64,000 nt of DNA from a virus (lineage: Duplodnaviria; Caudoviricetes): IMG/VR virus record IMGVR_UViG_3300037424_001630, positions 1-64,000 of that record; one strand, given 5' to 3'. The notes under the pieces were generated by a model. It was not told the origin of the DNA and ran no database searches. It was given only the letters and a program-made list of their open reading frames with translations. This document shows, piece by piece, positions 5,325-31,859 of the stretch. A program made the position numbers and the translations under genes. Every line of letters begins with the position of its first letter. Within the stretch, counting starts at the first letter, position 1.

Positions 5325-7268
5325 ATGGCGGACCCCGAGCTGACCCTCCTGCACGGTGACTGCGTCGAGGTCATGGGCGCGATGGCGCCGGATAGCGTCG
5401 ACGCGGTCGTGTGCGACCCGCCCTACGGGCTCGAGTTCATGGGCAAGGAGTGGGACAGGTTCTCGCCGAATCAGCCCACGCTGAGGTCCGGATCCGACCA
5501 CGCGGGGAGTAGCTTCGCGGGCATCGACAAGTTTGTCATAGGCGACAACGCTCCGAGCCAGCTCCCCACCTACGGGAAGCGAAGGACCACGGCGCGATGC
5601 AAGTCGTGCGGCAAGCGGGACGCGTTCAAGAACCCCCACGCCTGCGGCGCCGGCGAGTGGGTCATTGAGTTCGTCGACGCCGCCCCGCTAGAGATGCAGG
5701 CGTTCGGCGAGTGGTGCAGGACGTGGGCGCTCGCCGCCCTGCGCGTCCTCAAGCCGGGCGGGCACCTGGTCTCCTTCGGCGGCACGCGCACGTACCACCG
5801 GCTCGCGTGCGCGCTCGAGGACGCGGGCTTCGAGCTGCGCGACTCGCTCCTGTGGCTCTACGGTCAGGGCTTCCCGAAGTCGCGGGACATCGGCAAGGCG
5901 ATCGACAAGGAGGCCGGTGCGGAGCGCGAGGTAAGCAGGCCCGGTGCGAAGTACGAGAGCGCTCCGGACGGGTCCGTCTACAATCACGGACTGAACGCGA
6001 ATTTTCAACAGCGCCAGCTGACCGCCCCCGCCACGGCCGCCGCCCGCGAGTGGGCAGGCTGGGGCACCGCCCTGAAGCCTTCTTACGAGCCCATCGTCCT
6101 CGCCCGCAAGCCGCTGTCCGAGAACACCGTCGCCGCCAACGTACTGCGCTGGGGGACGGGCGCGTTGAACGTGGACGGGTGCCGGATCGGCACCGGGACT
6201 GGTGACAGCCGTGACGGTGAGGCGACGGCCGAGACGCGGTACACTGAGCGCGGGAGCGTGACGTTCGCAGCCAAGCCGGGCCCGCGCGGCGGGGACGCGA
6301 AGGGACGCTGGCCCGCCAACGTCGTCCTGAGCCACACGGCCGACTGCGAGGTGGTCGGCACCGCACCCGACAGGCACGTCAAGAACGTGCGCCCGGTGGC
6401 GGACGCGGCTAAGCACTCCGAGGGGTGGGGCACCGCGCCCATGGAGACAGCCGAGGTCGAGGAGGAGCGCGAGGTCTGGGCGTGCGTCGAGGGCTGTCCC
6501 GTGCGGCTGCTGGACAAGCAGAGCGGGCGTCTGCAGAGCGGGACGGGCGCGGTCAAGCGCAGGGCGTCCGCGACACGGGACGGCAACAGGAGCGCCGCGT
6601 TCGGGAAGGAGAACCGCGCCGAGGGTACTCCGAACGTGGAGTATGGCGACGCCGGCGGAGCCTCGCGCTTCTTCTACTGCGCGAAGGCGAGCCGCGCGGA
6701 GCGGGAGCGGGGGCTGGACGCTCTCCCGACCCACACCAGCGAGGAGCTCAGCGGAGGGGGCGGCACTGCGCACCCGCTTGCGGGCGCCTATCAGTCGCGG
6801 AAGCCCGAGGGGATGCACAACACGCACCCGACCGTGAAGCCCGTCGCCGTCATGCGGTGGCTGATACGCCTCGTCGCGCCGCCGGGAGGCGTCGTCCTCG
6901 ATCCGTTCGTCGGCTCAGGTACTACGCTGGTCGCCGCCCGCGAGGAGGGTATGGCGGCGGTCGGGATCGAGCGCGACGCCGGGTACGTTCTTATCGCTTC
7001 GGCGCGGGCGGGGGTCGAGTCGCCGGTCTCGCCGGAGGACGCGCCGACGCCCGTCTCGGAAGTCGACAGGACTCTGAACCCCTACAAGACGGCGCGGTGC
7101 AACGTGTGCGGTTCCAAGACGAAGTCCCCCGGGCAGTCCTCGCCGGGACCGAACTGCGGGCACGGTGACTGGTCGTGGGTCGGGCAGGTGGGGGGCGCTC
7201 GCGCCCCGGCTGGTATACTGGTTGGAGCCCCTCCCCCACAAGAGGACGTGGACCCGTACATGTCATGA
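5325..7268 (+). CDS. DNA amino-methyltransferase (N6-A/N4-C, beta class)
   Basis: LLHGDC, VVCDPPYG (catalytic motif IV), FGGTRTYHRL, ALKPSYEPIVLARKP, HPTVKP, VLDPFVGSGTT (SAM-binding motif I). Confidence 0.92.
   Translation: MADPELTLLHGDCVEVMGAMAPDSVDAVVCDPPYGLEFMGKEWDRFSPNQPTLRSGSDHAGSSFAGIDKFVIGDNAPSQLPTYGKRRTTARCKSCGKRDAFKNPHACGAGEWVIEFVDAAPLEMQAFGEWCRTWALAALRVLKPGGHLVSFGGTRTYHRLACALEDAGFELRDSLLWLYGQGFPKSRDIGKAIDKEAGAEREVSRPGAKYESAPDGSVYNHGLNANFQQRQLTAPATAAAREWAGWGTALKPSYEPIVLARKPLSENTVAANVLRWGTGALNVDGCRIGTGTGDSRDGEATAETRYTERGSVTFAAKPGPRGGDAKGRWPANVVLSHTADCEVVGTAPDRHVKNVRPVADAAKHSEGWGTAPMETAEVEEEREVWACVEGCPVRLLDKQSGRLQSGTGAVKRRASATRDGNRSAAFGKENRAEGTPNVEYGDAGGASRFFYCAKASRAERERGLDALPTHTSEELSGGGGTAHPLAGAYQSRKPEGMHNTHPTVKPVAVMRWLIRLVAPPGGVVLDPFVGSGTTLVAAREEGMAAVGIERDAGYVLIASARAGVESPVSPEDAPTPVSEVDRTLNPYKTARCNVCGSKTKSPGQSSPGPNCGHGDWSWVGQVGGARAPAGILVGAPPPQEDVDPYMS
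7211..7219 (+). promoter_or_regulatory. Candidate extended -10 promoter (TGG TATACT) upstream of MuF gene
   Basis: TGn-TATACT about 45 nt upstream of ATG 7265; AT-rich hexamer is rare in this GC-rich DNA. Confidence 0.4.
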
Positions 7269-9703
7269 TCCCCGAGCACTTTCGACAGTCGGCTGAGCAC
7301 AGGAAGCTCTGGGCGACCATGGAGTACCTGTGCGAGTGCGACCCCGCGGGACCGTTCCTTCACGGGGGCGTGGAGAAGAGCGCCGACCAGCACGGCTCCG
7401 CCAAGGCCGCCGCGGAGCGGCGCAGGACGGTCCTGGAGCACCGAGCCGCGGACGAGATGCGGGCGTACTTCCGCGAGGAGCGGGAGCACATCGTCCCCGC
7501 CGTTGCCAGGGGGGACTTCGAGACCGAGGTGGACGGGGACGGCGCCCTAGTCGTCACGTCGCTCCCGGCGCTCGACGCCCTCCGGGACGACCTGATAGAG
7601 GCGTACTGGTCCGTTTGGGGTGGCGCCGCGGACGAGTGGGCGAAGTGGGTGGCCGGGCACGCGCGGGACCGCGTTGCGAAGTACAGGGAGGACCAGGAGC
7701 GCGACGAGGACGGGCGCTGGGTGGACGAGGGGGGCGGTAGTCGCGGCTCGTGGGCGCGCGTCCAGGCGCGGGACTTCATCGCGGCGCGGAGCAAGACGAC
7801 CCGCCCCGGGTTCCTGTCGCACCTCGAGCCGGCGGACTTGAAGGACCACCGACTATACACGAACCCGGATAGTACGGTTGGGTTCGCTATTGACCCGAAG
7901 GGGGACGCGCAGAACCTCTTCAACAACGACGGGCCGCAGGGCGCCGGTACAATAGCGGTGTTCGACTCCGTCCGCAAGGGCGGGCGCACGCTCGACTGCT
8001 TCGACGGGTACCTTCCGCGCTTGTACACGCAGGCGGGGTTCGTCGAGACCGGGCGCATGAAGTTCGACGCGGACCAGGCGCCGGATGACTGGGACTACAG
8101 GAAGGACGACCAGCCGGACGTCGTGTTCATGGCGTGGAAAGGATGGCCAGACGATGATGAGCGACGAGCGGAAGACCGGGCGATCGGAGACAAGGACGGG
8201 TGGCTACCGTGGGTCGCCAGCACCCGGTACTACGACGACTACGGGAAGGCCAAGGAGGACTCCCGCGGAGGAGCGCTTCCTCGCCCAGATGGTGCGGCTG
8301 GGCGGGGGAAAGCCCCTCACCGTACAGGAGGAGAATCTGTCCATCCGGCAATGCCTCGAGCTGAACGGCACGCTGGAGTAGCGAAGGCCGACGAGCCGGC
8401 CTACGACTACGGCGCGCCGATCGACGCGTGGCTCCGGGAGAACGCGGGCAAGCGCATCGTCGGGATCAACGAGACGACCCGCAAGCGGATCGCCGCCGAG
8501 ATCGCCGCGGGCCGGGCGGCCGGCGAGACGCTCCGCCAGATCGCCAGGCGCATCGACAAGTTCTACCTCGAGGACATCATCCCGCACCGGAGCATGACCA
8601 TAGCCGTGACCGAGGTCGGGCACGCGGCGAACTGGTCGCAGAACTTCATCGCTGAGGACACGGCGGAGCGGGGCGTCCCGATGGAGAAGGAGTGGGGCGC
8701 CATCTTCGTGCGGACCCGGGAGGCGCACGAGGAGGCGGACGGTCAGCGCGTGCCGCTGGACGAGCCGTTCGACGTCGGCGGCGAGAAGATGATGTACCCG
8801 GGCGACGAGACGCTCGGGGCGGGGCCGGAGAACATCATCAACTGCCACTGCTTCGTGATGTACCACGTGGTCGACGAGGAGGCCAAGGCGAAGGCGGCCG
8901 AGGTGCCCGCGGCTCTGCCTACCCCGGCGGAGTTCGCCAAGACCGTCCTCGGGGTCGAGAACTCCGACGTGGTCACGGCTCTGGCGTTCGCGCGGGGCGT
9001 GTTCTCCGAGGGGGACGACTGGGTGCGGGCGCGGAAGACTGTCATGAAGCACGTCCGCCAGCTCCGGCGCGCGGCGCCCGTCGAGAAGTACGAGGAGGGC
9101 GAGCACCCCAGGGACGAGCGGGGTCGGTGGACCGACTCCGGCGCCGCTGAAGCCTCTCCGAGCGCTCCGGGCGACCCCATCCCCGGCAGGGCTGATGTCG
9201 TCCGGCAGCGCGTCCGAGAAGCGGAGCGCGCCCACGCCCATGCCTCGGTCGAGCATGCCCGGGTCGTCTCGCGTTCCGGCGCCGTGTTGTTCGACAGGTC
9301 TGACGGGGCCGCCAGCAGCATCGACTTCACCCCCGCGGACATGTGGACGTTCCGGGACAACAGAGGCGCGGTGCTGACGCACAACCATCCGGGCGGCGAC
9401 AGCTTCAGCAAGGACGACATCGCGTTCGCGCGCCAGGCGGGGCTGTCGGAGATCCGGGCGTCGACCCGCGACGCCGTGTTCTCCATGCGGCCCGGCCCGC
9501 GCGGCTGGCCCTACACCGACGACGTCTTCATGTGGCACTTGGAGGTGGACGCGGCGGTCGTGCTCGAGATCAACACGAAAGTCGCGGAGGGACTCGGCAT
9601 CAGCGAGGCGTACCGCATGCACTTCGACGAGGTGTGGAGGCGAATAGCCGCGGCCCACCCCGAGCACCTCGTGTACAGCAAGGAGGCGACGAGAAATGCC
9701 TGA
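7265..9703 (+). CDS. MuF (SPP1 gp7-like) head morphogenesis protein fused to GNAT-like and JAB/MPN-like cargo domains
   Basis: MuF core RIVGINETTRKRIAAEI...RSMTIAVTEVG...KEWGA...TREAHEEADGQRVPLDEPFDVGGEKMMYPGD...NIINCHC; two tag copies (7679, 9086); LDCFDGYLPRLYTQAGF GNAT-like block; THNHPGGDSFSKDD JAB-like motif. Confidence 0.88.
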   Translation: MIPEHFRQSAEHRKLWATMEYLCECDPAGPFLHGGVEKSADQHGSAKAAAERRRTVLEHRAADEMRAYFREEREHIVPAVARGDFETEVDGDGALVVTSLPALDALRDDLIEAYWSVWGGAADEWAKWVAGHARDRVAKYREDQERDEDGRWVDEGGGSRGSWARVQARDFIAARSKTTRPGFLSHLEPADLKDHRLYTNPDSTVGFAIDPKGDAQNLFNNDGPQGAGTIAVFDSVRKGGRTLDCFDGYLPRLYTQAGFVETGRMKFDADQAPDDWDYRKDDQPDVVFMAWKGWPDDDERRAEDRAIGDKDGWLPWVASTRYYDDYGKAKEDSRGGALPRPDGAAGRGKAPHRTGGESVHPAMPRAERHAGVAKADEPAYDYGAPIDAWLRENAGKRIVGINETTRKRIAAEIAAGRAAGETLRQIARRIDKFYLEDIIPHRSMTIAVTEVGHAANWSQNFIAEDTAERGVPMEKEWGAIFVRTREAHEEADGQRVPLDEPFDVGGEKMMYPGDETLGAGPENIINCHCFVMYHVVDEEAKAKAAEVPAALPTPAEFAKTVLGVENSDVVTALAFARGVFSEGDDWVRARKTVMKHVRQLRRAAPVEKYEEGEHPRDERGRWTDSGAAEASPSAPGDPIPGRADVVRQRVREAERAHAHASVEHARVVSRSGAVLFDRSDGAASSIDFTPADMWTFRDNRGAVLTHNHPGGDSFSKDDIAFARQAGLSEIRASTRDAVFSMRPGPRGWPYTDDVFMWHLEVDAAVVLEINTKVAEGLGISEAYRMHFDEVWRRIAAAHPEHLVYSKEATRNA

Positions 9704-9806
9704 GACACCGGACGGGGGATGGCACCTCGACGACGCGCAGGAGAACCCGTACGCCAAGAAGCCGACCCCAGCGCAGGACGACCATGAGGGCGACGATGAT
9801 GAGTAA
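9696..9806 (+). CDS. 36-aa acidic peptide (MPETPDGGWHLDD...) downstream of the JAB domain
   Basis: Follows AAGGAGG SD; overlaps MuF stop and next start; DGGWxLDD also begins ORF 21579, which follows the other JAB copy. Confidence 0.55.
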   Translation: MPETPDGGWHLDDAQENPYAKKPTPAQDDHEGDDDE

Positions 9807-10299
9807 CTCGGACCGCACCCTGACGCTCCTGGGAGCCACCGACCGCGCCGGCGCGATCCTGGCGAACTTCTGCGCCGCTCTTGGCAAGGAGCAGACGCTC
9901 GCCTGCTACGGCTGGATGTCCCCGCCGCGGGAGGCCCGGTGGGGGGAGACATTCTACGAGTTCGTCGACTCCGTCGGTGGCGTGGCGTGGTCGAGTCTGT
10001 CGGAGTACCCGAAGGAGCCGGGGTACTACGAGCTCGCGCTCGGAGTGTGGCCCTACCAGCAGGGGCTCGGGTGGAGGCGCCAGGTCCTCGACCTGACGGT
10101 CCGGGCGGCGTTCGGGACCCTGGGCGCTCACCTGGTGAGCATGCTGGTCCTGGACACGTGCCGGGTGCATCACGCGATCTGCCTCGACGAGTGGTCCCGC
10201 GGTGTCAGCCCGTGGGTGCTCGCCGGGCGCGTCTGGCACCCGGTGAAGTACAGCATATTCTCGTACGCGCGACCCGCGGAGTACCGCTCCTCCGGATAG
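9799..10299 (+). CDS. Putative GNAT acetyltransferase
   Basis: YELALGVWPYQQGLGWRRQVL resembles the GNAT acetyl-CoA-binding motif A. Confidence 0.55.
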   Translation: MSNSDRTLTLLGATDRAGAILANFCAALGKEQTLACYGWMSPPREARWGETFYEFVDSVGGVAWSSLSEYPKEPGYYELALGVWPYQQGLGWRRQVLDLTVRAAFGTLGAHLVSMLVLDTCRVHHAICLDEWSRGVSPWVLAGRVWHPVKYSIFSYARPAEYRSSG

Positions 10300-10321
10300 G
10301 AAGGGCACGGAGGTGACGGTC

Positions 10322-10453
10322 ATGAAGAGGAAGTGGTACGTGAACTGGGAGCTCCTGCTCGTGGGCGCCGGTCTGGTCCTGTTCTGGTGGGGCGTCTTCC
10401 GGCTGGTTCCCGTGGCGGCTCGACTGTGGGGGGCGGGCTGGGATGGGCTTTGA
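10322..10453 (+). CDS. Small membrane protein
   Basis: SD GGAGG; MKRKWYVNWELLLVGAGLVLFWWGVF hydrophobic stretch. Confidence 0.45.
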   Translation: MKRKWYVNWELLLVGAGLVLFWWGVFRLVPVAARLWGAGWDGL

Positions 10454-10805
10454 GAACAACTCCTGCCACCTGTGCGGGGTCCAGCTGGCGCCGGACGACT
10501 TCGACGCGGTGTGCTCCGTGTGCGACGAGGAGGGCGAGGAGATGATGACGAACCCGGATGGCGGGTGGCGGTCCGGTCCCAGAGTGGCCCGGCCGACTCA
10601 GTCTGTGCGCGGGTGGCTCGGGCGGCTGGTGACGGCGGAGGTGCGCTCGTACTACGCCGAGCACGGGGGCGACTTCAACCTGGAGATATGGGCTCCCGTG
10701 TACAGGGCGGCGCGGGCCGGGTGGCGCCGCGGGTTCCTGGTCGGGCTGGTGGTCGGCTACCTTGCCGCGTCGCTGTCGGTCTGGCTGATGCTCCTGGAGC
10801 CGTAG
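10443..10805 (+). CDS. Hypothetical protein with CxxC...CxxC and C-terminal TM helix
   Basis: CHLC...CSVC; FLVGLVVGYLAASLSVWLMLL. Confidence 0.5.
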   Translation: MGFENNSCHLCGVQLAPDDFDAVCSVCDEEGEEMMTNPDGGWRSGPRVARPTQSVRGWLGRLVTAEVRSYYAEHGGDFNLEIWAPVYRAARAGWRRGFLVGLVVGYLAASLSVWLMLLEP

Positions 10806-10806
10806 G

Positions 10807-10995
10807 GTGTCCGCCTCCTGGCTCTTCCTCCTCGCGGCGACCGTGCCCGTGGTGGCGTCGCTCCTGTGGGTGAACGGCTCCCTCATGGGCGAGAAGCTGG
10901 AGATCGTCCGGCAGGCGCAGGTGGAGCGGGCGGACTACAAGTCGTGCGCCGCGGAGCTGGCGGCTCTGAGGTCCAGGAGGGCGAGGCCATGGTGA
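10807..10995 (+). CDS. Small membrane protein
   Basis: N-terminal hydrophobic helix; closely packed with neighbours. Confidence 0.4.
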   Translation: MSASWLFLLAATVPVVASLLWVNGSLMGEKLEIVRQAQVERADYKSCAAELAALRSRRARPW

Positions 10996-11315
10996 TGATG
11001 GGGGACGTGAGGTATGTCAAGCCTTGGCGTTACTCTCTCCGGGACCGTGTCGGCGCGGGGTACCCGGGCGACGCGCTTCAGCTGTGGGGTTGCTGGGTCT
11101 GGTACGGCATGCCGTACCTCAACGAGCGGGTCTACTGGGTCGGCGGGCGCTGCGCGGCGGGGTGTCACTCCGTCGGTCACTTTGTCACCAACCTGGAGAT
11201 GGACAGCCTGGACCCCGCCGACCTCGCGGAGCTGATGTCCAGCTTCGCCCGAGACATGTTGTCCGACCTCGCCGTCGCCCATTTCATGCGCTCGCCGGAG
11301 CCAGACACGCGGTGA
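10989..11315 (+). CDS. Hypothetical protein
   Basis: SD AGGAGG; overlaps neighbours; GC3-rich codons. Confidence 0.45.
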   Translation: MVMMGDVRYVKPWRYSLRDRVGAGYPGDALQLWGCWVWYGMPYLNERVYWVGGRCAAGCHSVGHFVTNLEMDSLDPADLAELMSSFARDMLSDLAVAHFMRSPEPDTR

Positions 11316-11539
11316 CCTTCACGGAGGACCAGGCGGCCGACCTGATCCTGGAGGGGAACGCGTTCCGCAGCGTCAAGGAGCCCGGCTCCTGGCGCGTACG
11401 GGTCTGCCTGTGGCGCCCGGTGGATGTCGGGACGGAGCGCGCGGGGCCCGAGGACGCGGCGGTCCTCGAGCGGGTCGCTATGACGCTCGGCTTTCCCTCC
11501 CGTACTTCCCATGCTGAGGGTGGCGAAGGCGGGATATGA
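11312..11539 (+). CDS. Hypothetical protein
   Basis: GTGA coupling to upstream ORF. Confidence 0.4.
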   Translation: MTFTEDQAADLILEGNAFRSVKEPGSWRVRVCLWRPVDVGTERAGPEDAAVLERVAMTLGFPSRTSHAEGGEGGI

Positions 11540-11599
11540 TGGTGTGCGGGAAGTTTTCGGGTCTTCGTAGTTAAACAACTTACGGGAGGCGACGTACAG

Positions 11600-12493
11600 A
11601 TGACGAGATCGAGGTGGGTGAGAAGCTTCACGAGGTTCTTGTTCTTGGCGGTCGCGGCGGCGGCCTTCGCCGTGTTCCCGGTCATCGGCGACGTGGCCTA
11701 CGCCGGCAAGCCGAGCGGCGCCCCGGGCAACAGCGGGGCCGGCGGCAACTCGGGCGGGGGCAATTCGGGCGGGACGGGGTCCAGCAACGGGACGTCCCAC
11801 TCGGGAGGCGTCGGGGGTGGCGGCGGCAACCCGGGGGGTGGTACTGGCGGGGGAGGGTCGACTGGTGGAGGTGGCAACTCCGGGGGCGGCGGGTCGACTG
11901 GTGGAGGTGGCAACTCCGGGGGTGGTGGGTCGACGGGTGGCGGTGGGTCGACGGGTGGCGGTGGGTCGACGGGTGGTGGTGGGTCGACTGGCGGGGGTGG
12001 CAACTCCGGTGGGGGCGGCAACTCCGGTGGGGGCGGCAACTCCGGTGGGGGCGGCAACTCCGGCGCGGCAGGTCCCGGCGGTGTCAGCCCTGCCGGTTCC
12101 GGCAGCGCCTCGGGAGGCATCTCCGGGGGCGACGCGTCCGGCGGCGGCGACGGTGGACCGAGCGCGGGCTCGGGGTCTCGGTCCCCGGGTTCCGGGTCCG
12201 TGAAGCAGACTCCCGGCAAGAAGGTGGGCTTCCTCACGGCGGCTCAGGCAGCCACGGCAGACGCGGCGTCGGGGTGCCTGGGGAGCATAGCGTTCACGAT
12301 CATAGACGTCAACGTGGTGAACTCCGACGGGTCGTTCGGGTGGTCGACGCCCGGCCCGGTCGGGCACAGCGCCGACTTCATACGCTGCATGCGCGCCCTG
12401 GGGTACACGTTCGGGGCTACCATGCCCGCGTATGACCGACGCGCTCCGGCGTTCACGGCTCCGTACTTCGAGACGGGTACTCAAACGCCTTAA
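11600..12493 (+). CDS. Secreted glycine-rich repeat protein
   Basis: Signal peptide (FLFLAVAAAAFAVFPVIGDVAYA); tandem GGGSTG/GGGNSG repeats about 11740-12065; C-terminal domain with two Cys. Confidence 0.7.
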   Translation: MTRSRWVRSFTRFLFLAVAAAAFAVFPVIGDVAYAGKPSGAPGNSGAGGNSGGGNSGGTGSSNGTSHSGGVGGGGGNPGGGTGGGGSTGGGGNSGGGGSTGGGGNSGGGGSTGGGGSTGGGGSTGGGGSTGGGGNSGGGGNSGGGGNSGGGGNSGAAGPGGVSPAGSGSASGGISGGDASGGGDGGPSAGSGSRSPGSGSVKQTPGKKVGFLTAAQAATADAASGCLGSIAFTIIDVNVVNSDGSFGWSTPGPVGHSADFIRCMRALGYTFGATMPAYDRRAPAFTAPYFETGTQTP

Positions 12494-12505
12494 TGGCTTC
12501 AGTGG

Positions 12506-12536
12506 GAGGGGCGGTCGGCGTTCCCGGCCGCCCCTC
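12506..12536 (+). terminator. Strong GC hairpin after the Gly-rich gene
   Basis: gaggggcggtcgg-cgttc-ccggccgcccctc, 13-bp stem with one G-U, followed by aattt. Confidence 0.55.
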
Positions 12537-12556
12537 AATTTGAAGGAGGGACTGCG

Positions 12557-12778
12557 GTGGCGGGGGACGTCGAGGTCAGGAACGGGCAGGCGGAGTCCAA
12601 CGGGGGCTGCAACGGGTGCTTCGCAGGCCGGGGGAGGGTCTTCATAATTCGCGCCAGCTACGGCGAGCTCCGACTCTGCCCCACCGAGCTCCGACTCTGC
12701 CCCACCTGCGCCTCGCTTCTGGTCGGGGCACTGAGAGATCACGGCGTCAGGGGCGCCAAGAGGGGGGAGTCGAAGTGA
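12557..12778 (+). CDS. Small Cys-containing hypothetical protein with a tandem 7-aa duplication
   Basis: SD AAGGAGG; CNGC and CPTC; ELRLCPT repeated twice. Confidence 0.5.
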   Translation: MAGDVEVRNGQAESNGGCNGCFAGRGRVFIIRASYGELRLCPTELRLCPTCASLLVGALRDHGVRGAKRGESK

Positions 12779-13377
12779 GCGGGCTCAGGATCAACCCCGA
12801 GTCGGCGCTGGACGGGGCCTCGCGGCATCGCCCGTGGCCGCCCCCGCCGCGGCCGGTGACGCTCGTCTTCGTGGACTGCGAGGCGTCGGGGCCGTGCCCC
12901 GGGTGGGGCGTCTGCACCGAGTTCGGGGCGGTCGAGTACATACCGATCGACGACCCGAGGCGCGCGGGCGACTTCGGCGGGGAGGACTTCCCGCGCGGCC
13001 CGGTCGGGAGGACGTTCAGGGGCGTCGTGTACAGCCGCGACGGGAAGGTCCTGCTGAACGACCCGGTCACGGTCTGGTCGTCGTTCGACGTCTGGCTCCG
13101 CGAGGTGCGCGGGGCTGGGGGCGCGGTGTCCATGGTGACGGACAACCCCGCCTTCGACTGGCAGTGGGTCAACGCGGGGCTCTGGGGGTCGACCGGGAGC
13201 AACGTCCTCGGGCACTCCGCCAGGCGCATCGGCGACTTCTACGCCGGCCTGACGGGCGACTTCCGCAACACGCAGCGGTGGAAGCGCCTGCGCGTGACCG
13301 AGCACGACCACGACCCGGTGCACGACGCCGCGGGCAACTGCGAGGCGTTCGACAGGATCCTCAGGGGGGAGCGATGA
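12775..13377 (+). CDS. DEDDh 3'-5' exonuclease-like protein
   Basis: VFVDCEASG (ExoI), TDNPAFDWQWV (ExoII), HDPVHDA (ExoIII). Confidence 0.75.
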   Translation: MSGLRINPESALDGASRHRPWPPPPRPVTLVFVDCEASGPCPGWGVCTEFGAVEYIPIDDPRRAGDFGGEDFPRGPVGRTFRGVVYSRDGKVLLNDPVTVWSSFDVWLREVRGAGGAVSMVTDNPAFDWQWVNAGLWGSTGSNVLGHSARRIGDFYAGLTGDFRNTQRWKRLRVTEHDHDPVHDAAGNCEAFDRILRGER

Positions 13378-13670
13378 AGGGCAGCCCGTTGCGCGTCATA
13401 AGGTACTCGCCGCGGACGAAGAGCGAGCCGATCACCGCGAGGACGTACGATGTCCTGCTCGCCGAGCTCGAGCGGGCCTATCCGGGCAAGTGGCGCCGGG
13501 CGGTCGACGTAACCCCCGTGGCGGTCTGCAAGACCGTGGACAACGAGGCCGACGCTCTGGAGACGATCCGGCGTATCCGCACGACCCCAGGAGCGCCTCG
13601 GGGGTCTGGCATGACCCCAGCGGCGCGGGAGCTGAGGCGTCGGGCGAGGGTGGCGGAAGACGAGGGGTAG
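13374..13670 (+). CDS. Hypothetical protein
   Basis: ATGA coupling to the exonuclease gene. Confidence 0.4.
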   Translation: MKGSPLRVIRYSPRTKSEPITARTYDVLLAELERAYPGKWRRAVDVTPVAVCKTVDNEADALETIRRIRTTPGAPRGSGMTPAARELRRRARVAEDEG

Positions 13671-13758
13671 TTAAAGAATTTAACAGCCGGGACCCGGGGT
13701 TGTACGCGGGTCGCGGACTACCCTAGTGGGCGAGTAGTACATGGGAGGTACGGGAGCC

Positions 13759-25400: not shown

Positions 25401-28237
25401 CCGCCGCGATAGCGGGCGCTCGATCGTTTGTGGAGCGGTACGCGGGCGGGCGGTGGTATCGCTTCGACGTGGAGCGGAAGGGTGGAGAATCGAAGAGCTA
25501 TGCCGCTGCGACACAGCAGGAAGCGCTCGACTACCTGGACGGCAAGGTCGGGAAGGCCAAGGTCGAGAAGGCGTACGACGAGTCGCTCCACCCGCGCGAC
25601 GAGTCGGGCAGGTGGAGCGAGGGCGGCGGGGCTGCGGTGGAGCATATCAGGGCCGGCGTCGCGAGCGCGGTCGAGGCGGTCCCGGGCAGGGCGGCGCACG
25701 GGCGCACGGCGGAGAACGCGTTCGTCCTGACCCGCGACGGCAAGGTGTACGCCTGGAACAGGCAGGGCGAGATCGCGGACCGGCGCGAGGTGACGACCGT
25801 TCACAGCCATTCCGCCGACTCGGGACACGACCCCGCCACTCTGGAGGACTTCCAACCCCTCAACTCGAGGGACATCAAGAGCTTCCTCCAGGACACCGGG
25901 GCGCGCACCGACGCCATCATCATGGCGGACGGGCGCCTGGAGTTGCTGCACAAGCGGAACGACCCGGCGTTGTACGTGAAGCTGGGGAAGCGAACCAAGT
26001 GGCTCGACGCGACCCTGCATCCGACGTATCAGGAGCGCCAGGCGTACTACGAGCAGCACAAGGACGAACCCGGCTACAGCATGTACAATCAGGAGCGTGA
26101 GCGGCTGAGCGCCTTCGCGGCGGCGCACGGGCTGGACTACCACGACGACCTCCGATGGCGCGGCGTCGAGAAGGCGTACGAGGAGAGCGAGCACCCCAGG
26201 GACGAGTCGGGTAGGTGGACGGACGCGGGCGGATCCGCGAGCGGCGCGACCGACGTTGAATGGCGCGGGTGGACCGAGCGACCCGAGGGGGACTACGCGA
26301 ACCCCGAGCAGGATAGGTACGTCGAGAACGTCGCGCACCTGTCGGGGTGGAACGGGCAGGTCGTCACGCGGGCGGGCAACGGCCCGAAGTTCACGGTCGG
26401 CGGGAAGGAGTTCATCGAGGGCGGACACTACGACCCGCGGACGGACCAGGTCGTGATCTACATAGACAAGGAGCCGCGCGAGGGCGCCGAGCAGATCGCG
26501 GTGCACGAGGCGTCCCACGGGCTGTGGCACGCGGCGAAGCCGGAGCTCGACAAGCAGCTCGACGCCGTGAGGGACATCGCCACCGCCGCGGCCGGGGGGG
26601 TGCCTCCTCCGCCAGGTCTGACGCCGAAGGAGACGAAGAACTGGCCGTACCTCAGCCCGGCGGACGATCGGATACACCCGCTGCTGAAGGAGAAGTACCC
26701 GCTCGCCTACGCGTACCGGGAGCTGATGGAGAGCGAGTGGGTCGCCACGGGGAAGCGCGTCTCCCCCTACGCGGCTGCCTGGTGGGCCGCCCACGAGGCC
26801 GGGGACGCGGCATCCATGCCGGCGGTCAACGAGACGCTCGCGGAGATCAGCGCGCAGACGAGGAGGTGGGGCCTCGACACGTTCGACTCCCCCATGTTCA
26901 AGGAGTGGAAGGCGTTCCACCACGAGGTCATGAAGGCCGGCCGCGCCCACGTCGCGCCCCCCGTCACCACGGCGGCGTCGAAGGCCGCGGAGAGAGTCGT
27001 CGTGATCGGCCCGGACGGGCGCGGCGAGGTGCACGAGGCTGACGGTACGGTGCGGTGGCTGCGCCCCGCGCCCGTCGAGAAGGACTACGACGAGGCGGAG
27101 CACCCCAGGGACGAGCAGGGACAGTGGACCGACGCCGGCGGCGGGGCGGCGTCCGCGGGTGCGGGCGGAGCCCTCGGGGAGCGGGGGGGCACGTTCGAGT
27201 CCCGGAGTGCGTACGAAGCCCTCCAGCGCTCGACCCACGCGGCGTGGGCTCGGAGGGGGGCGGCCCTCGACGCCGCGGCGAAGGCGAAGAACCGCTTCGA
27301 GGCGGCCGGGCACATCGCGACCGCGGGGCTCGCGGCGCGCGACGAGCTGAACGAGGTCATCGCTCAATATGGGATCCAAGCCGGGCAGGCGACGCTTCTG
27401 CCGAACAGGGCGGCGGTCCAGGCGACCATGCTGCTCAACGAGCACGACGCCCTGAGCAGCGCGGCGAGGACGGTCGACGACAAGTCGGTGCGGAACTGGC
27501 GGGCGAGCCTGCGGGAGTACTACCGCGAGCCGTATCTGGACTTCGGGAACTCCCGGACCGACGGGAAGGGGTACGAACGCGTCGCGTCCGGCAGCGGGTA
27601 CTACTCGACCGGCGCCGTGGAGTGGGCTGGCGGCGGTGCGAACCCCGAGTCGCCGTCGTGGACGGACGAGGAGCTGGCCGACATCGCGCAGGACCTAAAG
27701 GGGCTCCCCCCGATCGACGACGTCCGCCCGCTCGTGCTCTTGACGACTTTCATGTCCCTCGACCAGGCGGGATCGCGCGGCGGATCTGAAATGCCGGAGT
27801 ATACTGGGATCATCACGATACAGGCGTCGTCGCGCGCCGAGGACGCCAGGCAGACGGTGCTCCACGAGTTCGGCCACGAGGCGGTGTACTCGGCTATCCG
27901 CGGGTACGGGAGGCGGAGCGACGCCGGCAAGTGGGACGACCCGAACTACACGCCCGGCGACGCGGTTCGGGCCTTCGAGAAGGACCACGCCGCCCTGGCG
28001 GCCAGCCCGGACCGAGCGCAGCGCTTCCGCATGGACACCGGCGGGGGGCGCTCGTGGGGCGGGCCGGAGGAGTTGTTCGCCGAGGACTTCGCGACGGCGT
28101 TCAGCGGTCGACCGACGAACCGCTTCGGCAAGGAGAGCGTGGGGAACGTGGAGGCTCTGACGCCGGAGGAGCGCGAGAAGTTCAAGGCGTGGATCGTCGC
28201 CGCTACCGCTAGCTCGCCGCGCCCGACGAGGGAATGA
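22448..28237 (+). CDS. Tagged polyprotein 3 (InPase, ART-like, GNAT-like, PDG-His x2, JAB-like, two zincin metallopeptidases)
   Basis: TGATG coupling; seven tags; HYGYILLTEGADGDHVDCFVGP (InPase); YHATD...VFTT (ART); VHSHS...SRD (JAB); HEASH and HEFGH (HExxH). Confidence 0.85.
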   Translation: MAPARATAKGRKLDFRTEFQGIPVSVETRRGALRHWHDPLTGRDGATKMPHHYGYILLTEGADGDHVDCFVGPVEDAASAYVVRQNDPKTGEYDEDKVMLGFASVADAKAAYLASRDDGSRAFGSIVPMPMERFKQRVLEARGGPVRKYDEAEHPRDEQGQWTESGGASSDDFTDAKSDIDDADGPARIQAALSHYGARPLKIRGEAVPNLYVTSDLVVEWNGADRFASVYEKAEWVDRTDPEDFYPDYQDQFNDDFWASGGEVYHATDEENAAGIESDGIEASSRTRGLSNRGVGAAVFTTSDVEETELGSYGPAVFKIDVAAMARDGVKPYASQEPDVVAYELKGALAAAVELDDYSPEEPESGMSVHTVILGGSVPAKYVSRLESGKAYHAKRARFNPNRIVEKYDESEHPRDESGRWTEGGGGGGTAVTDDPEASAERWAKELGATWNGVQEGADGKPKYAMMTEGRTHSTAAVPLEGITRDKVATKLRQVRERFGLTEERDVIERPAEEGEEGDVVLRVGRTHVYIGDYPVPGSGPAAEDPTRPGKAANVSIARHSPTPDWMGYDKEPDPVETRRALVGSVKWLREHGYTYLTAVAVNPGVHSLLERLGATKEPGTGRQWLPLSAIRKAVWDEVEKDVFGTSGTAGILAPEQGVFRKPRRSRPANKAEGIGIPLTVAKSQRVDAGFVTADGTVLRMDPDMEHEDFLKSLPAAQRPAGTRPGRDMILEAHRAGWVRWSQFRYASTRPTLMLSFAAGNPAGAENARKLIAQRPAMGKYVVDAEDVHSGGGPVSSRVFESSADAMVHVVAIGGAGGGGAFDESEHPRDEEGKWVDKDRDGDSFSVGPGVVGGHRFVVGRLEGGRIVEDKEHPRVNPYEAIFQRRGARVGGSVEKYSADQPRDEQGQWSGSSSATRNDPNGWLKPATGDLLQNEGRMHVEHAHDLGFSGGPEMLDEGYVRVTAERDASGSRRPIFGLHFRDGNAAAIAGARSFVERYAGGRWYRFDVERKGGESKSYAAATQQEALDYLDGKVGKAKVEKAYDESLHPRDESGRWSEGGGAAVEHIRAGVASAVEAVPGRAAHGRTAENAFVLTRDGKVYAWNRQGEIADRREVTTVHSHSADSGHDPATLEDFQPLNSRDIKSFLQDTGARTDAIIMADGRLELLHKRNDPALYVKLGKRTKWLDATLHPTYQERQAYYEQHKDEPGYSMYNQERERLSAFAAAHGLDYHDDLRWRGVEKAYEESEHPRDESGRWTDAGGSASGATDVEWRGWTERPEGDYANPEQDRYVENVAHLSGWNGQVVTRAGNGPKFTVGGKEFIEGGHYDPRTDQVVIYIDKEPREGAEQIAVHEASHGLWHAAKPELDKQLDAVRDIATAAAGGVPPPPGLTPKETKNWPYLSPADDRIHPLLKEKYPLAYAYRELMESEWVATGKRVSPYAAAWWAAHEAGDAASMPAVNETLAEISAQTRRWGLDTFDSPMFKEWKAFHHEVMKAGRAHVAPPVTTAASKAAERVVVIGPDGRGEVHEADGTVRWLRPAPVEKDYDEAEHPRDEQGQWTDAGGGAASAGAGGALGERGGTFESRSAYEALQRSTHAAWARRGAALDAAAKAKNRFEAAGHIATAGLAARDELNEVIAQYGIQAGQATLLPNRAAVQATMLLNEHDALSSAARTVDDKSVRNWRASLREYYREPYLDFGNSRTDGKGYERVASGSGYYSTGAVEWAGGGANPESPSWTDEELADIAQDLKGLPPIDDVRPLVLLTTFMSLDQAGSRGGSEMPEYTGIITIQASSRAEDARQTVLHEFGHEAVYSAIRGYGRRSDAGKWDDPNYTPGDAVRAFEKDHAALAASPDRAQRFRMDTGGGRSWGGPEELFAEDFATAFSGRPTNRFGKESVGNVEALTPEEREKFKAWIVAATASSPRPTRE

Positions 28238-30243
28238 TGGAGATCAGCTCACAGGCCGTCGTGTTTGACTCCCGCAACCGGGCGCTTCTCTACCTGGTGG
28301 AGCGGGGGCGCAGTCCCGACGTGATGGGCAAGTGGTCCGTCGGCTGGGCCGCTCCGCGTTCGTTCGCCCCCCTCGCCCCGGAGCGCGAGTACGCGATGCT
28401 CCACCCCGACGGTGCCGGTCGGCGCATCTTCGCCCTCCGCTCCCGCGTGGCGAAGGAGTACGTCGAGTCCGAGCATCCCCGGGACGAGGACGGGAAGTGG
28501 ACGGACGCCGGCGGCGCCCCGCACGCGGGTGACCCCGAAGCCATGCGGGTCGTCCAGGCGGAGCTCGGCTGGCGCCCCGAGGTGCGGGACGAGGAGGGTC
28601 AGAAGGACGTCGAGATGCTGCACCGCCTCGTCGAGGAGCGAAAGGCCGCGGTCCCGCGCATGGACGCGCTGTCGAAGACGCTGGAGGGGGAGGAGGTCTC
28701 CGGACATGTAGCGCAGAACTGGGACAGCTTGAGCAGCTCGGCGCAGGCGGAAGCCGAGCAAGCATGGAAGGAAGGCAACTACTCCAGCTCCTATGAAGCC
28801 GAGGTGGAGAGCTGGAGGGAGGGGCTCCCCTCCGAGATCGAGGAGGCGATGTCCCTGACTCGCGACGACTGGCGGTATGAGGGCCTGAAGGAGGCCCTCA
28901 CGGACTACGGGTTCACCGCGGAGTCGGTGGACGCCACGATCAAGGAGTATGACCCGAGGGCGATGGACGCGGCGGACTGGAACAAGGCTATCAAGGAGGA
29001 GTACATAGCCGGGCGCCTGGTCCACGTCGATGACGCGCCAGCCAATTTCCTCGCGGGCGGTGATGATCCGGAGAAGCAGCCCGAGCTGCCTGGCGTCCCG
29101 CCGCCGACCCCGGAGGAGATCGCGGCCTATCGCGAGCGCCAGCGGGCGCGCATGACGCGGGAGTGGGACAGCGAGACGCACGCCGTCACGGCCGACGTCA
29201 ATAAGGCGTGGGAGGAGGAGGTCCAGAGGCGCATCGACCACGAAGATCCGCCTGACTACCTCGAGGAGTCCGTGCACGAGTTCCTGGACGACCAGTGGTC
29301 CCAGATGAGCGACGAGGACAAGTACGCTGAGGCCCCCGACAGCTCGAAGGAGGACGGTGCGGGCGACGAGGCTGGGATCGTCCGCATGCCGAAGAATGTC
29401 AAGACGATCGCCGACGGCGAGGACTACGAGAAGACGAGGCTGCTCCTGCGCTCGATGGTCAACTCTCGCGCCGCTGAGCTGTTCAAGGAGAGGGGGATAG
29501 ACGCGGACCCGCAGGCGGTCGCGGACGAGCTGTGGGAGGGGTGGAAGGGGTCGTCTGGCAACCCGATCGGGTCCCTGCTCCGCCGGGCGATCAAGGAGGA
29601 GTTCGGTACGTGGGATGCGGGTCGAGGCGCGCCTCCCGGAGGGCTGAGCATTTCGGGATCCGACGTGAGGATGGACCCGCAGGACGCGATGAAAGTGGCG
29701 AAGGCGTACGTGCGGGCGCAGTGGGAGGCGACGCAGTGGGCGCTCGCGAACACGAAGGACGAGAAGGGCGGGAAGCTCGGCGGCATGCTCCTGTACCGTG
29801 GTCTGATGAGACCCGGAGATGAGGTGGCGGATAGCGGCATGTCCGTTCCCGGGGAGAGCTCGTCGGGACATCCGGTGACGTACCGCCGTGTGTACACGAA
29901 ATCGTCCGGGAAGGCGCTGTCGGCCAACGCGCTGCAGTCCTTCACCACGAAGTCGACGCTCGCGAATAGCTGGAACGGAGTGAACGTAGAGCCCATGGCG
30001 ACGCCGACCCGAGTGGTGGTGCGCGCCCTGGTCCCGAATGAGGCGATCTTCTCCCTGCCCGCCTACGGGAAGAACATCCACGAGGAGCAGGAGGTTGTCG
30101 TCATGGGCGCCCCGCTGGAGGCGTGGGACGCCTGGTACACCCTCGCGCCGACCGGCGGGAATATACCGTTCCCCCGCACCCGCCGTACCGGGGTGTCCGC
30201 GCTCGGCAGGACTTTCGCGGAGAAGGGGATAGGTACGACATGA
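28234..30243 (+). CDS. Tagged protein 4: R-S-E clade mono-ADP-ribosyltransferase
   Basis: One tag; LLYRG (R), LQSFTT (S), HEEQEVVV (ExE) catalytic triad in the C-terminal domain. Confidence 0.8.
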   Translation: MMEISSQAVVFDSRNRALLYLVERGRSPDVMGKWSVGWAAPRSFAPLAPEREYAMLHPDGAGRRIFALRSRVAKEYVESEHPRDEDGKWTDAGGAPHAGDPEAMRVVQAELGWRPEVRDEEGQKDVEMLHRLVEERKAAVPRMDALSKTLEGEEVSGHVAQNWDSLSSSAQAEAEQAWKEGNYSSSYEAEVESWREGLPSEIEEAMSLTRDDWRYEGLKEALTDYGFTAESVDATIKEYDPRAMDAADWNKAIKEEYIAGRLVHVDDAPANFLAGGDDPEKQPELPGVPPPTPEEIAAYRERQRARMTREWDSETHAVTADVNKAWEEEVQRRIDHEDPPDYLEESVHEFLDDQWSQMSDEDKYAEAPDSSKEDGAGDEAGIVRMPKNVKTIADGEDYEKTRLLLRSMVNSRAAELFKERGIDADPQAVADELWEGWKGSSGNPIGSLLRRAIKEEFGTWDAGRGAPPGGLSISGSDVRMDPQDAMKVAKAYVRAQWEATQWALANTKDEKGGKLGGMLLYRGLMRPGDEVADSGMSVPGESSSGHPVTYRRVYTKSSGKALSANALQSFTTKSTLANSWNGVNVEPMATPTRVVVRALVPNEAIFSLPAYGKNIHEEQEVVVMGAPLEAWDAWYTLAPTGGNIPFPRTRRTGVSALGRTFAEKGIGTT

Positions 30244-31859
30244 CAGACTTCGCCTTCGACTTCGACCAAGGCAACAGCCCGGGCGCCCCCCACTGGCTCG
30301 CCGGCGGGAGGATGCGCCGGACCAGGGAGGAGACCCGCGCTGAAACGCGCCGACGCTGGAAGGCGAAGCGCGCCGAGCTCGAGGCGGACCCCGGCGCTGA
30401 CCTGAGGTTCGGCGACACGTTCGACGCCCTCGTGAAGGTCGCCAAGTCCGGCGACGTGGTCGCTGTGGACTTCGACGGGACGTGCACGGTCGACGCCGAC
30501 GGCACCGAGAACCCGCGCATGCGCACGCTCGTGCAGCACCTCGTGGGGCGCGGCGTCCCCGTCGTGGTCTTCACGGCGCGCCCCGCCGAGGAGGTGCGAG
30601 AGTGGCTCCGCACTCACGGCTGGCCCACCGGCGCGGTGACGAACGTCAAGAGCCCGGACTTCCGAGTCATGCTCGACGACCGGGCGGTGCACTTCGACCC
30701 GGCGATGCTCGCCGACCCGGACCTCGCCGACGAGCTGGTCGGCTTCAAGTCGTGGTGGGAGAAGGGCGAGGACACGCCGCTGTACCTCACCGAGAAGGAC
30801 ATGGTCGAGAAGGTCTGGGACGTCGAGAAGTACAGCGCGGACCAGCCTCGAGACGAGGACGGGCGCTGGACGTCCGGAGGCGGCGGGGTGGACGTCTCCG
30901 CCCGCACCGTGGAGACCGACGACGTAGAGGAGGCCGCCCGCGCGCTGGGCGAGGGGCGCCGGGTCGTCCTCAGCCAGCCGCGCCAGGTGTCGACCTTGCT
31001 GGATCGTCTCGCCGAGAAGGCGAGGGAGGCCGAGGCGAAGGGCGAGCAGGCGCCGAAGTACGACCTGTGCAACGTGTCGGTGAAGGGGACGAACATCTTC
31101 TGCGCTGGCGGCCTGGGTATCAAGCGCCTCCAGATGCCGCAGCTCTCCGGGAAGCCGACGCCGGGCTCGCCGGCGGATGGGCTCCCGAAGAACGCGAAGG
31201 GCGAGGTCGACATCGGTCCCGCGTTCCTCGAGAGCCTCCGCAATGAGGGCGTCGGGGTGAAGACGGAGACCGAGGAGCCGGGGCACCTTCGCGCGTCGCA
31301 GGCGGAGCTGAACGGCGTGAAGGTCGCGGGGATCATGGGCTTCCTTCGCTCGAATCCGGACAAGGTCGCCCGCGCGGAGCCGCTCTTCGTCAGCCGGGAC
31401 AACTACATCGTGGACGGGCACCACCGCTGGGCGGCGACCGTCGGGCTCGACTACGCGTCCGACTCCGACGCGGAGATTAGCGTCCCCATTCACCGCGTCG
31501 ACATGTCCATCACGGAGCTGCTCAAGCGGTCGCGCGACTTCGCCGAGAAGCACGGGCTCCCCCCGATGGGGTTCAAGCGGAAGGCGACGGGGTGCGGGTG
31601 CGAGGGCCTGCCCGCGTGGTCGCCCGCGGCGGAAGAGGCGGAGGAGGTACCCGCGGAGGTGTCGCCGCCGCGGATAGATCAGGTGGCTGTCGCGCTCGAG
31701 CGCGCCATAGGGGCGCTCCCGGGCGCCGTCGCCGCGGCGCTGGGGGTGGGCGGTCCGCAGGTGGCGCCGGAGCCGAGGGCGCCCCGCAAGGTGAGGAAGA
31801 CGGTCGTGCGGGACGAGAACCACCGCATCCTGTACGTGGACGAGGAGGAGATCGACTGA
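30240..31859 (+). CDS. Tagged protein 5: HAD phosphatase plus ParB-like domain
   Basis: ATGA coupling; VAVDFDGT...VFTAR...KSP..MLDDRA (HAD motifs I-IV); tag; LRASQAEL...PLFVSRDNYIVDGHHRWAA (ParB/Srx). Confidence 0.8.
   Translation: MTDFAFDFDQGNSPGAPHWLAGGRMRRTREETRAETRRRWKAKRAELEADPGADLRFGDTFDALVKVAKSGDVVAVDFDGTCTVDADGTENPRMRTLVQHLVGRGVPVVVFTARPAEEVREWLRTHGWPTGAVTNVKSPDFRVMLDDRAVHFDPAMLADPDLADELVGFKSWWEKGEDTPLYLTEKDMVEKVWDVEKYSADQPRDEDGRWTSGGGGVDVSARTVETDDVEEAARALGEGRRVVLSQPRQVSTLLDRLAEKAREAEAKGEQAPKYDLCNVSVKGTNIFCAGGLGIKRLQMPQLSGKPTPGSPADGLPKNAKGEVDIGPAFLESLRNEGVGVKTETEEPGHLRASQAELNGVKVAGIMGFLRSNPDKVARAEPLFVSRDNYIVDGHHRWAATVGLDYASDSDAEISVPIHRVDMSITELLKRSRDFAEKHGLPPMGFKRKATGCGCEGLPAWSPAAEEAEEVPAEVSPPRIDQVAVALERAIGALPGAVAAALGVGGPQVAPEPRAPRKVRKTVVRDENHRILYVDEEEID

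Follow-up and report, generated by a model that had tools for sequence, protein, structure and literature searches.

The polyvalent proteins of phages are regarded as the opening weapons that a phage fires into a cell. Only for phages T4 and P1 do we know of an account of how such proteins are brought into the capsid and divided into functional enzymes. In T4, a short capsid-targeting sequence (CTS) is carried by the internal proteins IPI-III and by Alt, and is cut off by the prohead protease gp21. In P1, the N-terminus of DarB is the packaging signal of the Dar system, whose very large anti-restriction proteins are loaded into heads with processing. Outside phages, the multifunctional autoprocessing repeats-in-toxin (MARTX) proteins are secreted bacterial toxins that are cut after Leu by their own cysteine protease domain. 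Polyvalent proteins have been described as giant multidomain proteins, encoded with head genes and predicted to be packaged and injected, that combine ADP-ribosyltransferase (ART), InPase, zincin, RadC/JAB, ParB-like, and 2H-type domains; autoprocessing by the zincins has been proposed, and processing of P1 DdrB is cited in the same work (Iyer, Burroughs, Anand, de Souza, Aravind 2017, J Bacteriol, PMC5512222). In MuF-fused polymorphic toxins and SPP1 gp7-type head proteins, MuF carries C-terminal effectors (PMC5512222; TIGR01641). Here we describe a reiterated peptide tag of ~20 residues in a tailed phage (Caudoviricetes; IMG/VR record IMGVR_UViG_3300037424_001630). The record is a single contig of 77,532 bp with 69% GC, and the window that we analyzed is its first 64 kb (positions 1 to 64,000). 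The array comprises 17 tags, six proteins (a MuF polyvalent protein and proteins A to E, encoded between 7265 and 31859 on the plus strand), and ~5,600 residues of cargo.

A regular expression and then a profile of the tag (alignment A2), applied to all open reading frames (ORFs) of the genome, both return exactly 17 copies. In the profile search their independent E-values span 2e-8 to 3e-16, and the runner-up is at E=3. The array is real beyond statistical doubt, and both the minus strand and all ORFs other than these six are free of copies. The MuF ORF holds two, namely tag 1 (7679–7738, E=2e-8), a degenerate copy with DQERDE (KYREDQERDEDGRW), and tag 2 (9089–9148, E=3e-14). Protein A carries five: tag 3, a DQPRDD variant (17500–17559, E=1.2e-9), tag 4 (17941–18000, E=7.4e-15), tag 5 (18463–18522, E=7.8e-14), tag 6 (20443–20502, E=5.4e-13), and tag 7 (20947–21006, E=5e-16). 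Protein B has a single copy, tag 8 (21660–21719, E=6.4e-16), and protein C has seven, which are tag 9 (22892–22951, E=1.1e-14), tag 10 (23669–23728, E=2.9e-16), tag 11 (24911–24970, E=2e-10), tag 12, a DQPRDE variant (25133–25192, E=1.3e-8), tag 13 (25574–25633, E=1.9e-14), tag 14 (26177–26236, E=9.9e-16), and tag 15 (27086–27145, E=3.4e-16). Proteins D and E have one each, tag 16 (28459–28518, E=2.4e-15) and tag 17, again a DQPRDE variant (30828–30887, E=4.4e-12). Most copies in this genome are thus internal rather than N-terminal. The gene junctions are all overlapping stop and start codons (ATGA, GTGA, or TGATG), so the translational coupling is real. A preliminary description of the locus had reported 17 copies in MuF and five consecutive, translationally coupled ORFs, and both the number and the arrangement hold. 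Its loci are likewise confirmed, with the corrections that B starts at 21579 and C at 22448, and that the 7.7 kb between MuF and A (9704–17412) are tag-free.

The tag is not confined to this phage. A profile of 40 tag copies, searched against 1.84 billion representative metagenome proteins, found 2,949 clusters at E<=1e-3, of which 552 also passed E<=1e-10 and 38 passed E<=1e-30; the highest copy number was 20 tags in one protein of 7,334 residues, and the array described here is an extreme example. Conservation extends from about -7 to +13 relative to the Pro, between featureless flanks, and the consensus of this core is K-[WFY]-[DE]-[EP]-x-x-[QH]-P-R-D-[ED]-x-G-[RKQ]-[WF]-T-[DSE]-G-G-G. In the form that the clusters have in common with our phage, it can be written [FYW]-D-E-x-E-[HQ]-P-R-D-E-x-G-[RK]-[WF]-T-x-G-G-G. 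Among the 150 best proteins, which hold 728 copies, the median start of the first copy is residue 40 and the median gap between copies is 227 residues. In these proteins the tag is a header and never C-terminal, with at least 160 residues following the last copy in 90% of them. The first tag falls within residues 1–45 in 65 of the 150 and sometimes only 3–6 residues past the Met, where a mere linker or separator would not explain it. The homologues of the tag-headed modules of our phage point the same way, since 42 of 65 start between -15 and +40 residues from a tag end, compared with 19% at random.

Tagged proteins carry a recognizable repertoire of cargo. Pfam and NCBIfam models applied to 49 of them identified ART-PolyVal (8), ADPrib_exo_Tox (7), MuF (7), GNAT (6), zeta toxin (4), a thioredoxin-reductase-like unit (4), and XkdF (2). 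The thioredoxin-reductase-like flavoenzyme module in four of the 49 was an unexpected cargo, and one tagged polyprotein of 1312 aa (P0067) has an XkdF prohead protease at its end. None of the Pfam or NCBIfam models covered the tag itself in these 49 proteins, a search of PDB sequences with the tag profile returned chance matches and no copy, and a literature search for the motif strings and for capsid targeting sequences with MuF returned nothing relevant. The preliminary description had known of no account of such a reiterated tag, and none turned up in Pfam, NCBIfam, PDB, or the literature searched.

Other collections were searched with narrower queries. A back-translated pattern found 19 exact-match contig stretches in IMG/VR, of which 14 held a true tag, on contigs with 50–66% GC; these 14 lie mostly at residues 33–150 of ORFs of 440–1050 residues (read from stop to stop), and the other five stretches were three copies of an unrelated small protein, one redundant locus, and one match by chance. 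A strict pattern run over 185,579 species genomes recovered one true tag, on a Bradyrhizobium contig, the rest being chance or unrelated matches; the strict EHPRDE form is thus almost absent from cellular genomes. Plasmids gave no match to a single canonical 34-residue tag query, a test that detects near-exact copies only. Among cultured phages, tblastn with tag queries found only the portal fusion of Faecalibacterium phage FP_Brigit (MG711465, 4000–6486), which consists of a portal, a Nudix hydrolase, one tag (FNEADHPRDENGQF), and a small C-terminal module with a PDG motif. Because the sensitivity of tblastn is low for 34-residue queries, absence from cultured phages and plasmids cannot be claimed.

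Is it the peptide or the underlying DNA that is conserved? One explanation is that the tag DNA serves as a handle for recombination, through which modules are shuffled, and that the peptide is a neutral linker. Modules have clearly been shuffled between polyproteins, and a few pairs of copies share exact runs of 31–47 nt. In addition, the rare Arg codon AGG accounts for 14 of the 20 conserved Arg codons scored (13 ungapped EHPRDE-type copies, e.g. at 9104, 17956, and 20458), while its share is ~15% in the genome, and this excess implies a local common origin of the copies, whether recent or homogenized. However, synonymous-site identity among copies is only slightly above the expectation from codon usage (596 vs. 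546 of 822 comparisons), and the median exact run shared between copies is 10 nt. In other phages the tag Arg codons are CGN, the same residues being encoded by different codons, and conservation at the level of residues over 2,949 clusters indicates that selection across phages acts on the peptide. Recombination as the main function of the tag is thereby largely refuted, and we regard it as very unlikely. As for structure, an AlphaFold2 (AF2) model of protein B, built on a 35-row alignment, leaves the tag undocked from its module as a low-confidence hairpin (predicted local distance difference test, pLDDT, ~62 over residues 31–40), with a short turn in which R35 bridges to W41. In this model the tag fits a short linear motif on a flexible tether. 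A predicted complex of four tag copies scored 0.02, which gives no verdict and weighs neither way on self-association.

The genes around the tag are usually those of phage heads, with the tagged gene placed between portal and capsid. Five of six sampled tag loci are head clusters or strings of cargo genes: (i) terminase, a Portal_Mu-zeta toxin protein, MuF, a tagged ART-PolyVal protein, and a Mu gpT capsid; (ii) terminase, Phage_portal_3, a tagged protein, and a 2H-MuF protein; (iii) a tagged ART-PolyVal protein followed by Peptidase_S78 and Phage_capsid (HK97-type); (iv) a MuF polyprotein and a tagged ART; and (v) three tagged genes in a row. A mainly non-phage setting, named beforehand as the outcome that would speak against a role in phage heads, is thus not what we see, neither at these loci nor in the species genomes with their single true tag. 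Taken together, the tag is widespread and portable, labels proteins whose genes lie among those of phage heads, and has apparently not been described before.

Like the preliminary description, which took the tag for a capsid-loading or ejection signal, and by analogy with the T4 CTS and the P1 DarB signal, we tentatively read it as a CTS-like address label for loading into the capsid, possibly combined with cutting. This is the best of the explanations that we considered, and we give it somewhat less than an even chance. The header position of the tag, the true N-terminal tags, the genes with a single tag, its portability, and the head-gene context argue for a label that is read rather than a passive linker. 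In this picture, the six proteins are polyvalent effectors of the phage type, built of exchangeable cassettes that are each headed by the ~20-residue label, and the label consists of an aromatic-acidic lead-in, a tight P-R-D-E-x-G-[RK]-[WF] turn (with the modeled Arg-Trp pair), and a Gly-rich tether. During head assembly, a factor not bound to any single phage lineage would recognize the label, and tagged polypeptides would enter the procapsid either alone or on a MuF or portal carrier. The cargo enzymes (ART, 2H phosphoesterase, InPase, RadC/JAB, zincin, and ParB-like) would later exit together with the DNA and serve in host takeover and anti-defence. Cutting at or near the tag may go along with loading, as in T4. 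The comparisons establish the label, where it stands, its portability, its setting among head genes, and, as described below, that it is tied to no single head-gene lineage; loading, cutting, and ejection are what we infer from them.

Several findings weigh against this proposal, and the most important of them came from comparing all ORFs of our phage with those of four complete tag-bearing IMG/VR genomes (G005, G007, G009, and G015). These four have more than 25 genes in common among themselves, but our phage and the four have only tagged cargo proteins in common, and the all-ORF comparison found no head, tail, or replication gene common to them. Protein D has homologues in G005 and G009 over ~630 residues at 27–29% identity, with the tag at the same place (a word-based search, which was swamped, gave only one relative), and the ParB-like module of protein E is 39% identical to proteins of G007 and G015. 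The head parts of tag bearers also vary, with XkdF, Peptidase_S78, or neither as protease, Portal_Mu or Phage_portal_3 as portal, and capsids of the Mu gpT or HK97 type. The preliminary description had proposed to look for co-occurrence with MuF and XkdF; neither XkdF nor a Pfam-detectable MuF was found in any of the four complete genomes. The capsid protein of our phage has relatives in none of 15 tag-bearing records, and a search for co-occurrence with Portal_Mu gave no match anywhere, controls included, and is hence uninformative. Because only cargo is shared while protease, portal, capsid, and MuF differ, the tag is tied to no single head lineage, and to no single protease, portal family, capsid family, or MuF. 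The reader of the tag is no gene detectably common to these phages. This is difficult for a loading label, since a receptor that is no longer recognizable as the same protein would hardly be expected to go with a peptide that is nearly invariant, and since the capsid-targeting peptides known to us are lineage-specific.

Further points against loading concern the tagged proteins themselves. Some tags follow carriers that become part of the head in any case, namely MuF in our phage and the portal-Nudix protein in FP_Brigit. Cultured Streptomyces phage YDN12 joins MuF, 2H, and protease without a tag, and most of the 34 homologues of the module of protein B are untagged, starting at the module or with other N-terminal leaders; judging from these homologues, the tag is separable from its cargo, which also fits a portable label. 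Lastly, the array lies 5–27 kb away from the recognized head genes of a contig that is only ~76% complete by CheckV. The tag could also be understood, more boldly, as a signal peptide for phage heads that is independent of lineage, read through a trait shared by widely differing tailed phages, or through an unrecognized adaptor, and enough to load and inject any protein. Such a signal would account for the free movement of cargo cassettes between unrelated phages, although we consider it rather doubtful.

The four genomes also show the tag in other arrangements. G005 has the unfused state, with five consecutive genes that each carry one N-terminal tag. In G007, two cargo proteins beside the canonical one (31117–35152) have, at the same N-terminal position, a divergent element (F-I-Q-D-P-x-T-G-x-L-x-G plus a Gly-rich tail), which from its sequence probably derives from the tag by divergence. 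A conserved mini-domain of ~45 residues (T-I-D-G-R ... A-T-x-x-K-I-x-F-D-D-G) stands ahead of the tag in three cargo proteins from these related phages (G005, 12625–14133; G007, 33437–35152; G015, 74032–75102).

The tags could instead be processing signals, where the tag and its Gly-rich tail mark sites at which polyproteins are cut (by a prohead protease, or by a carried zincin or JAB), and targeting is left to the carrier or to something else. Tags do stand at module boundaries and directly behind MuF and portal carriers, whose cargo would need release and not an address. HExxH motifs occur in 65 of the 150 multi-tag proteins (109 sites vs. ~7 expected by chance), an excess that fits the autoprocessing proposal of Iyer et al. 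2017 (PMC5512222), and some tagged polyproteins end in an XkdF protease. Moreover, the local lead-in of the tags in our phage, L-R-x-x-x-V-E-K-Y, resembles the N-terminus of its capsid protein (LRWLEKATW) and a VEKY site in its XkdF protein. However, many tags are at the extreme N-terminus, where there is nothing to release, and protease families vary among tag bearers, XkdF being absent from the four complete genomes. The tagged protein of G009 has neither HExxH nor JAMM, and the five tagged proteins of G005 have no HExxH and one JAMM-like motif. The VEK lead-in is specific to this genome, with LLRK, LRRE, and similar strings in other phages, and the site in the XkdF protein gets no score with the tag profile. 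On balance, processing as the role of the tag is somewhat unlikely.

The near-invariance of the core, across phages that have no other common gene and range from 50% to 70% GC, may also be read as a sign that the tag works after injection. In that case it would bind a universal host factor (a chaperone, protease adaptor, or hub), and modules would be refolded, positioned, or timed for destruction. A conserved host pocket would explain the invariance better than a diverging phage receptor, and true tags with a named carrier come only from a Faecalibacterium phage and a Bradyrhizobium genome. Against this, no candidate partner has been identified, we know of no visible likeness of the tag to ssrA, clamp-binding, single-stranded-DNA-binding protein (SSB) tail, or twin-arginine translocation (Tat) motifs, and G007 has the canonical and two clearly divergent tags side by side. 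We therefore rate a host partner as improbable. Another conceivable role is that an enzyme recognizes the tag and places a covalent change on each module. One short common leader on many unrelated proteins suits systems of this kind, the tag is accompanied by ARTs more often than by any other domain, and Arg, Asp, and Glu are present in its core. But our phage shares no enzyme gene with the other tag-bearing genomes, only one protein of G009 is tagged, and no ART was detected in G007; we rate modification as highly unlikely. A PDG-His domain was considered as a possible receptor of the tag and rejected, being rare among tagged proteins.

The six proteins are polyvalent by composition, since several unrelated catalytic domains per polypeptide were found across A, C, MuF, and E. 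Pfam recognizes only MuF, the 2H phosphoesterase in A, and the InPase at the start of C; the other modules are blank or weak. The preliminary description had each tag heading an unrelated effector module. The tag is indeed a portable header, but some modules are repeated, with two RadC/JAB paralogues (44% identity) and at least three PDG-His paralogues, and others have no tag of their own (the MuF N-terminus, the InPase, the first 70 residues of D, the HAD-like unit of E, and internal domains of modules A3 and C2).

The MuF polyvalent protein (7265–9703, 812 aa), whose start overlaps the upstream DNA methyltransferase gene as ATGA, consists of an N-terminal unit, the degenerate tag, an unassigned unit, MuF, a tag, and a RadC/JAB-like unit. 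Its MuF domain (8486–8860, aa 408–532) matches PF04233 Phage_Mu_F with E=3.4e-10 and 41.1 bits vs. a cut-off of 29.6, and the other five tagged proteins have no PF04233 match. A GNAT-like domain had been suggested in this protein, for which Pfam gave no support on the segment or on four homologues. The RadC/JAB-like module (9152–9700) has an E...HxHP...S..D motif and a paralogue in protein A, module A5 (21001–21576; JAMM motif HNHPAGRSLSLDD), the two having E34, H77, H79, S86, and D89 invariant (alignment A5). An AF2 model of the RadC/JAB module has a pLDDT of 87, with JAMM1 5ld9 (probability 1.00) and RadC 2qlc (0.97) as best folds. Thus the JAB-like calls made earlier at 9380 and 21208 gain from motif and fold, while a third one at 25802 lacks the canonical spacing.

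Protein A (17413–21579, 1388 aa) is supported as an ORF by its frame of third-codon-position GC and by a GTGA start overlap. Module A1 (17557–17922) is a small unit with an LFHGTS start that may have an ART-like fold; it is 60% identical to a tag-headed module of another polyprotein (P0068), aligns weakly with a Tpt1/KptA-like stretch of a third (P0120), and is blank in Pfam. Within module A3 is the 2H phosphoesterase domain (18877–19203; PF13563 E=6.1e-16, LigT_PEase E=1.4e-6), a Pfam-supported domain missing from the earlier list of effectors, whose homologues in cultured actinophages are annotated as RNA ligase. A3 ends in an untagged PDG-His copy (19954–20319), paralogous by BLASTP and by hidden Markov model (HMM) to copies at the end of module C2 (24497–24889) and in module C4 (25193–25552), in agreement with the PDG-His domains reported before. 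Protein B (21579–22448, 289 aa), which begins at a TGATG junction, has one tag and one module, B1 (21720–22445), a conserved family that is possibly ART-like. Its AF2 model (aa 55–280 of B) is confident, but VIA rows of the ART fold reach only Z 4.4 and 4.1, below the level that separates folds, and a Foldseek search for the fold of B1 found nothing.

Protein C (22448–28237, 1929 aa), which is itself the top match of the tag profile in the library search (P0001), begins with an InPase domain (22493–22858; PF18823 E=1.7e-35) that has no tag ahead. Module C1 (22952–23641) may be Tpt1/KptA-like, of the ART superfamily (PF01885 E=0.016), and its homologue P0047 matches the same family with E=0.0012. 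C1 has 10 matches among tagged polyproteins, and of the nine that begin near the module N-terminus, seven start directly after a tag. Modules C6 (26240–27061) and C7 (27152–28234) are putative zincins, with the motifs HEASH and HEFGH; C6 is blank in Pfam and has homologues in other tagged polyproteins, and C7 has a weak match to Peptidase_M78 (E=0.028). Zincins had been proposed at 26504 and 27863, and the HExxH motifs and the M78 match agree with this, Pfam being blank otherwise.

Protein D (28234–30243, 669 aa) has a 70-residue leader, a tag, and a long module that ends in a candidate R-S-E-type ADP-ribosyltransferase domain (29656–30240) with YRG, SFT, and EEQE motifs. The nearest Atlas clusters of this C-terminus are DRAT (0.93), ADPrib_exo_Tox, and Mod_ADP_RT (T4 Mod-type), and the structural template modeling (TM) score to DRAT is 0.51. 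No Pfam ART model passes for the C-terminus of D or for C1, B1, or A1. The R-S-E assignment of the preliminary description therefore leans on motifs and Atlas leads with Pfam blank, and its ART-like calls at 17560, 21720, and 23235 lean on the weak alignment, the Z values, and the PF01885 match given above. Protein E (30240–31859, 539 aa), which begins at an ATGA junction, has a HAD-like unit (weak Hydrolase_3 match, E=0.0085, and a DFDGT motif), a tag, and a ParB/sulfiredoxin-like module, E1 (30891–31649). The ParB-like assignment of E1 proposed before agrees with its DGHHR motif, an Atlas ParBc_2 cluster (0.90, 177 shared features), and a TM score of 0.74 to a viral ParB/Srx cluster, although Pfam is blank. 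With 26 BLAST matches, E1 is the module of our phage that has most homologues among the 150 best tag-profile proteins.

Beyond the array, the coding signal of the contig is almost wholly on the plus strand, and a nucleotide search with 7100–32000 against GenBank phages gave no match and no close phage relative. Directly 5' of MuF and coupled to it is a block (1513–7268) with a SAM (S-adenosylmethionine) methyltransferase, three glycosyltransferases, and a DNA methyltransferase of 648 residues, which may be a module for DNA hypermodification or surface modification. On the 3' side, the array is followed by a virion structural protein (phrog_1645) and an SLT (soluble lytic transglycosylase) gene, and between these two lies a protein of 234 residues (37877–38581) made of ~8 tandem repeats like G-[VI]-P-[VI]-E-S-L-x-G-x-x-R-R. 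Farther 3' is a 448-residue protein with a C-terminal XkdF-type prohead protease (PF14550, E=1.3e-18), and a scaffold-like gene and the capsid protein (phrog_1623, phrog_10) are also downstream. The MuF, XkdF protease, and capsid genes are all on the same strand. No terminase or portal gene was identified by PHROGs and Pfam scans that covered some of the ORFs, with Portal_Mu the only family searched genome-wide; given the CheckV completeness of 76%, part of the head module may lie beyond the contig.

Two tag-like strings were noticed in this downstream region. The XkdF gene (40926–42263) holds AVEKYITHEGGKWQV at 41241–41285, which combines the local VEKY lead-in with the G-K-W of the tag and precedes a stretch that is DUF2188-like by eye; a candidate 18th tag in the XkdF protein (AVEKYITHEGGKW) was rejected, as it gave no score with the tag profile. 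The capsid gene starts (44065–44100) with MLLRWLEKATW, which resembles the lead-in of some tags (LRWRGVEKAY). This likeness could reflect a shared protease site after Lys, and it is too short for testing.

A short label with such conservation across unrelated phages would make the question of how polyvalent proteins are loaded and separated directly testable. As a sequence handle, it would offer a way of finding injected effectors in metagenomes, where 2,949 clusters are already marked. Should the tag prove sufficient for loading, chosen proteins could be packed into phage particles. What is new here is that our phage and the four complete tag bearers are linked by their tagged cargo alone, which sharpens the puzzle of what reads the tag.

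Among known systems, the polyvalent proteins of Iyer et al. (PMC5512222) share the domain repertoire and the head-gene setting of this array, for which packaging is likewise predicted. The main text of that paper has neither the string 'HPR' nor the word 'linker' and describes no reiterated short header peptide, whereas here one ~20-residue label stands at the boundaries and also heads single-domain proteins. As in the MuF toxins, the MuF protein of our phage carries a C-terminal effector, but with tags on both sides, and most of the cargo is in five further genes without a MuF domain. MARTX toxins likewise line up unrelated effector domains, separated by recurring processing sites, and differ from this array, which has no such cysteine protease domain and is set among phage head genes. 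The Dar signal of P1 needs dedicated partner proteins of P1, while no common partner gene accompanies this tag. The CTS of T4, also a short peptide, sits at the N-terminus of proteins that have little else in common but all reach the head and are injected, and it unites targeting and cutting in one element. It is, however, limited to its lineage, with one copy per protein and a defined cut site; the tag described here is reiterated within polyproteins and is near-invariant across phages that have no head gene in common.

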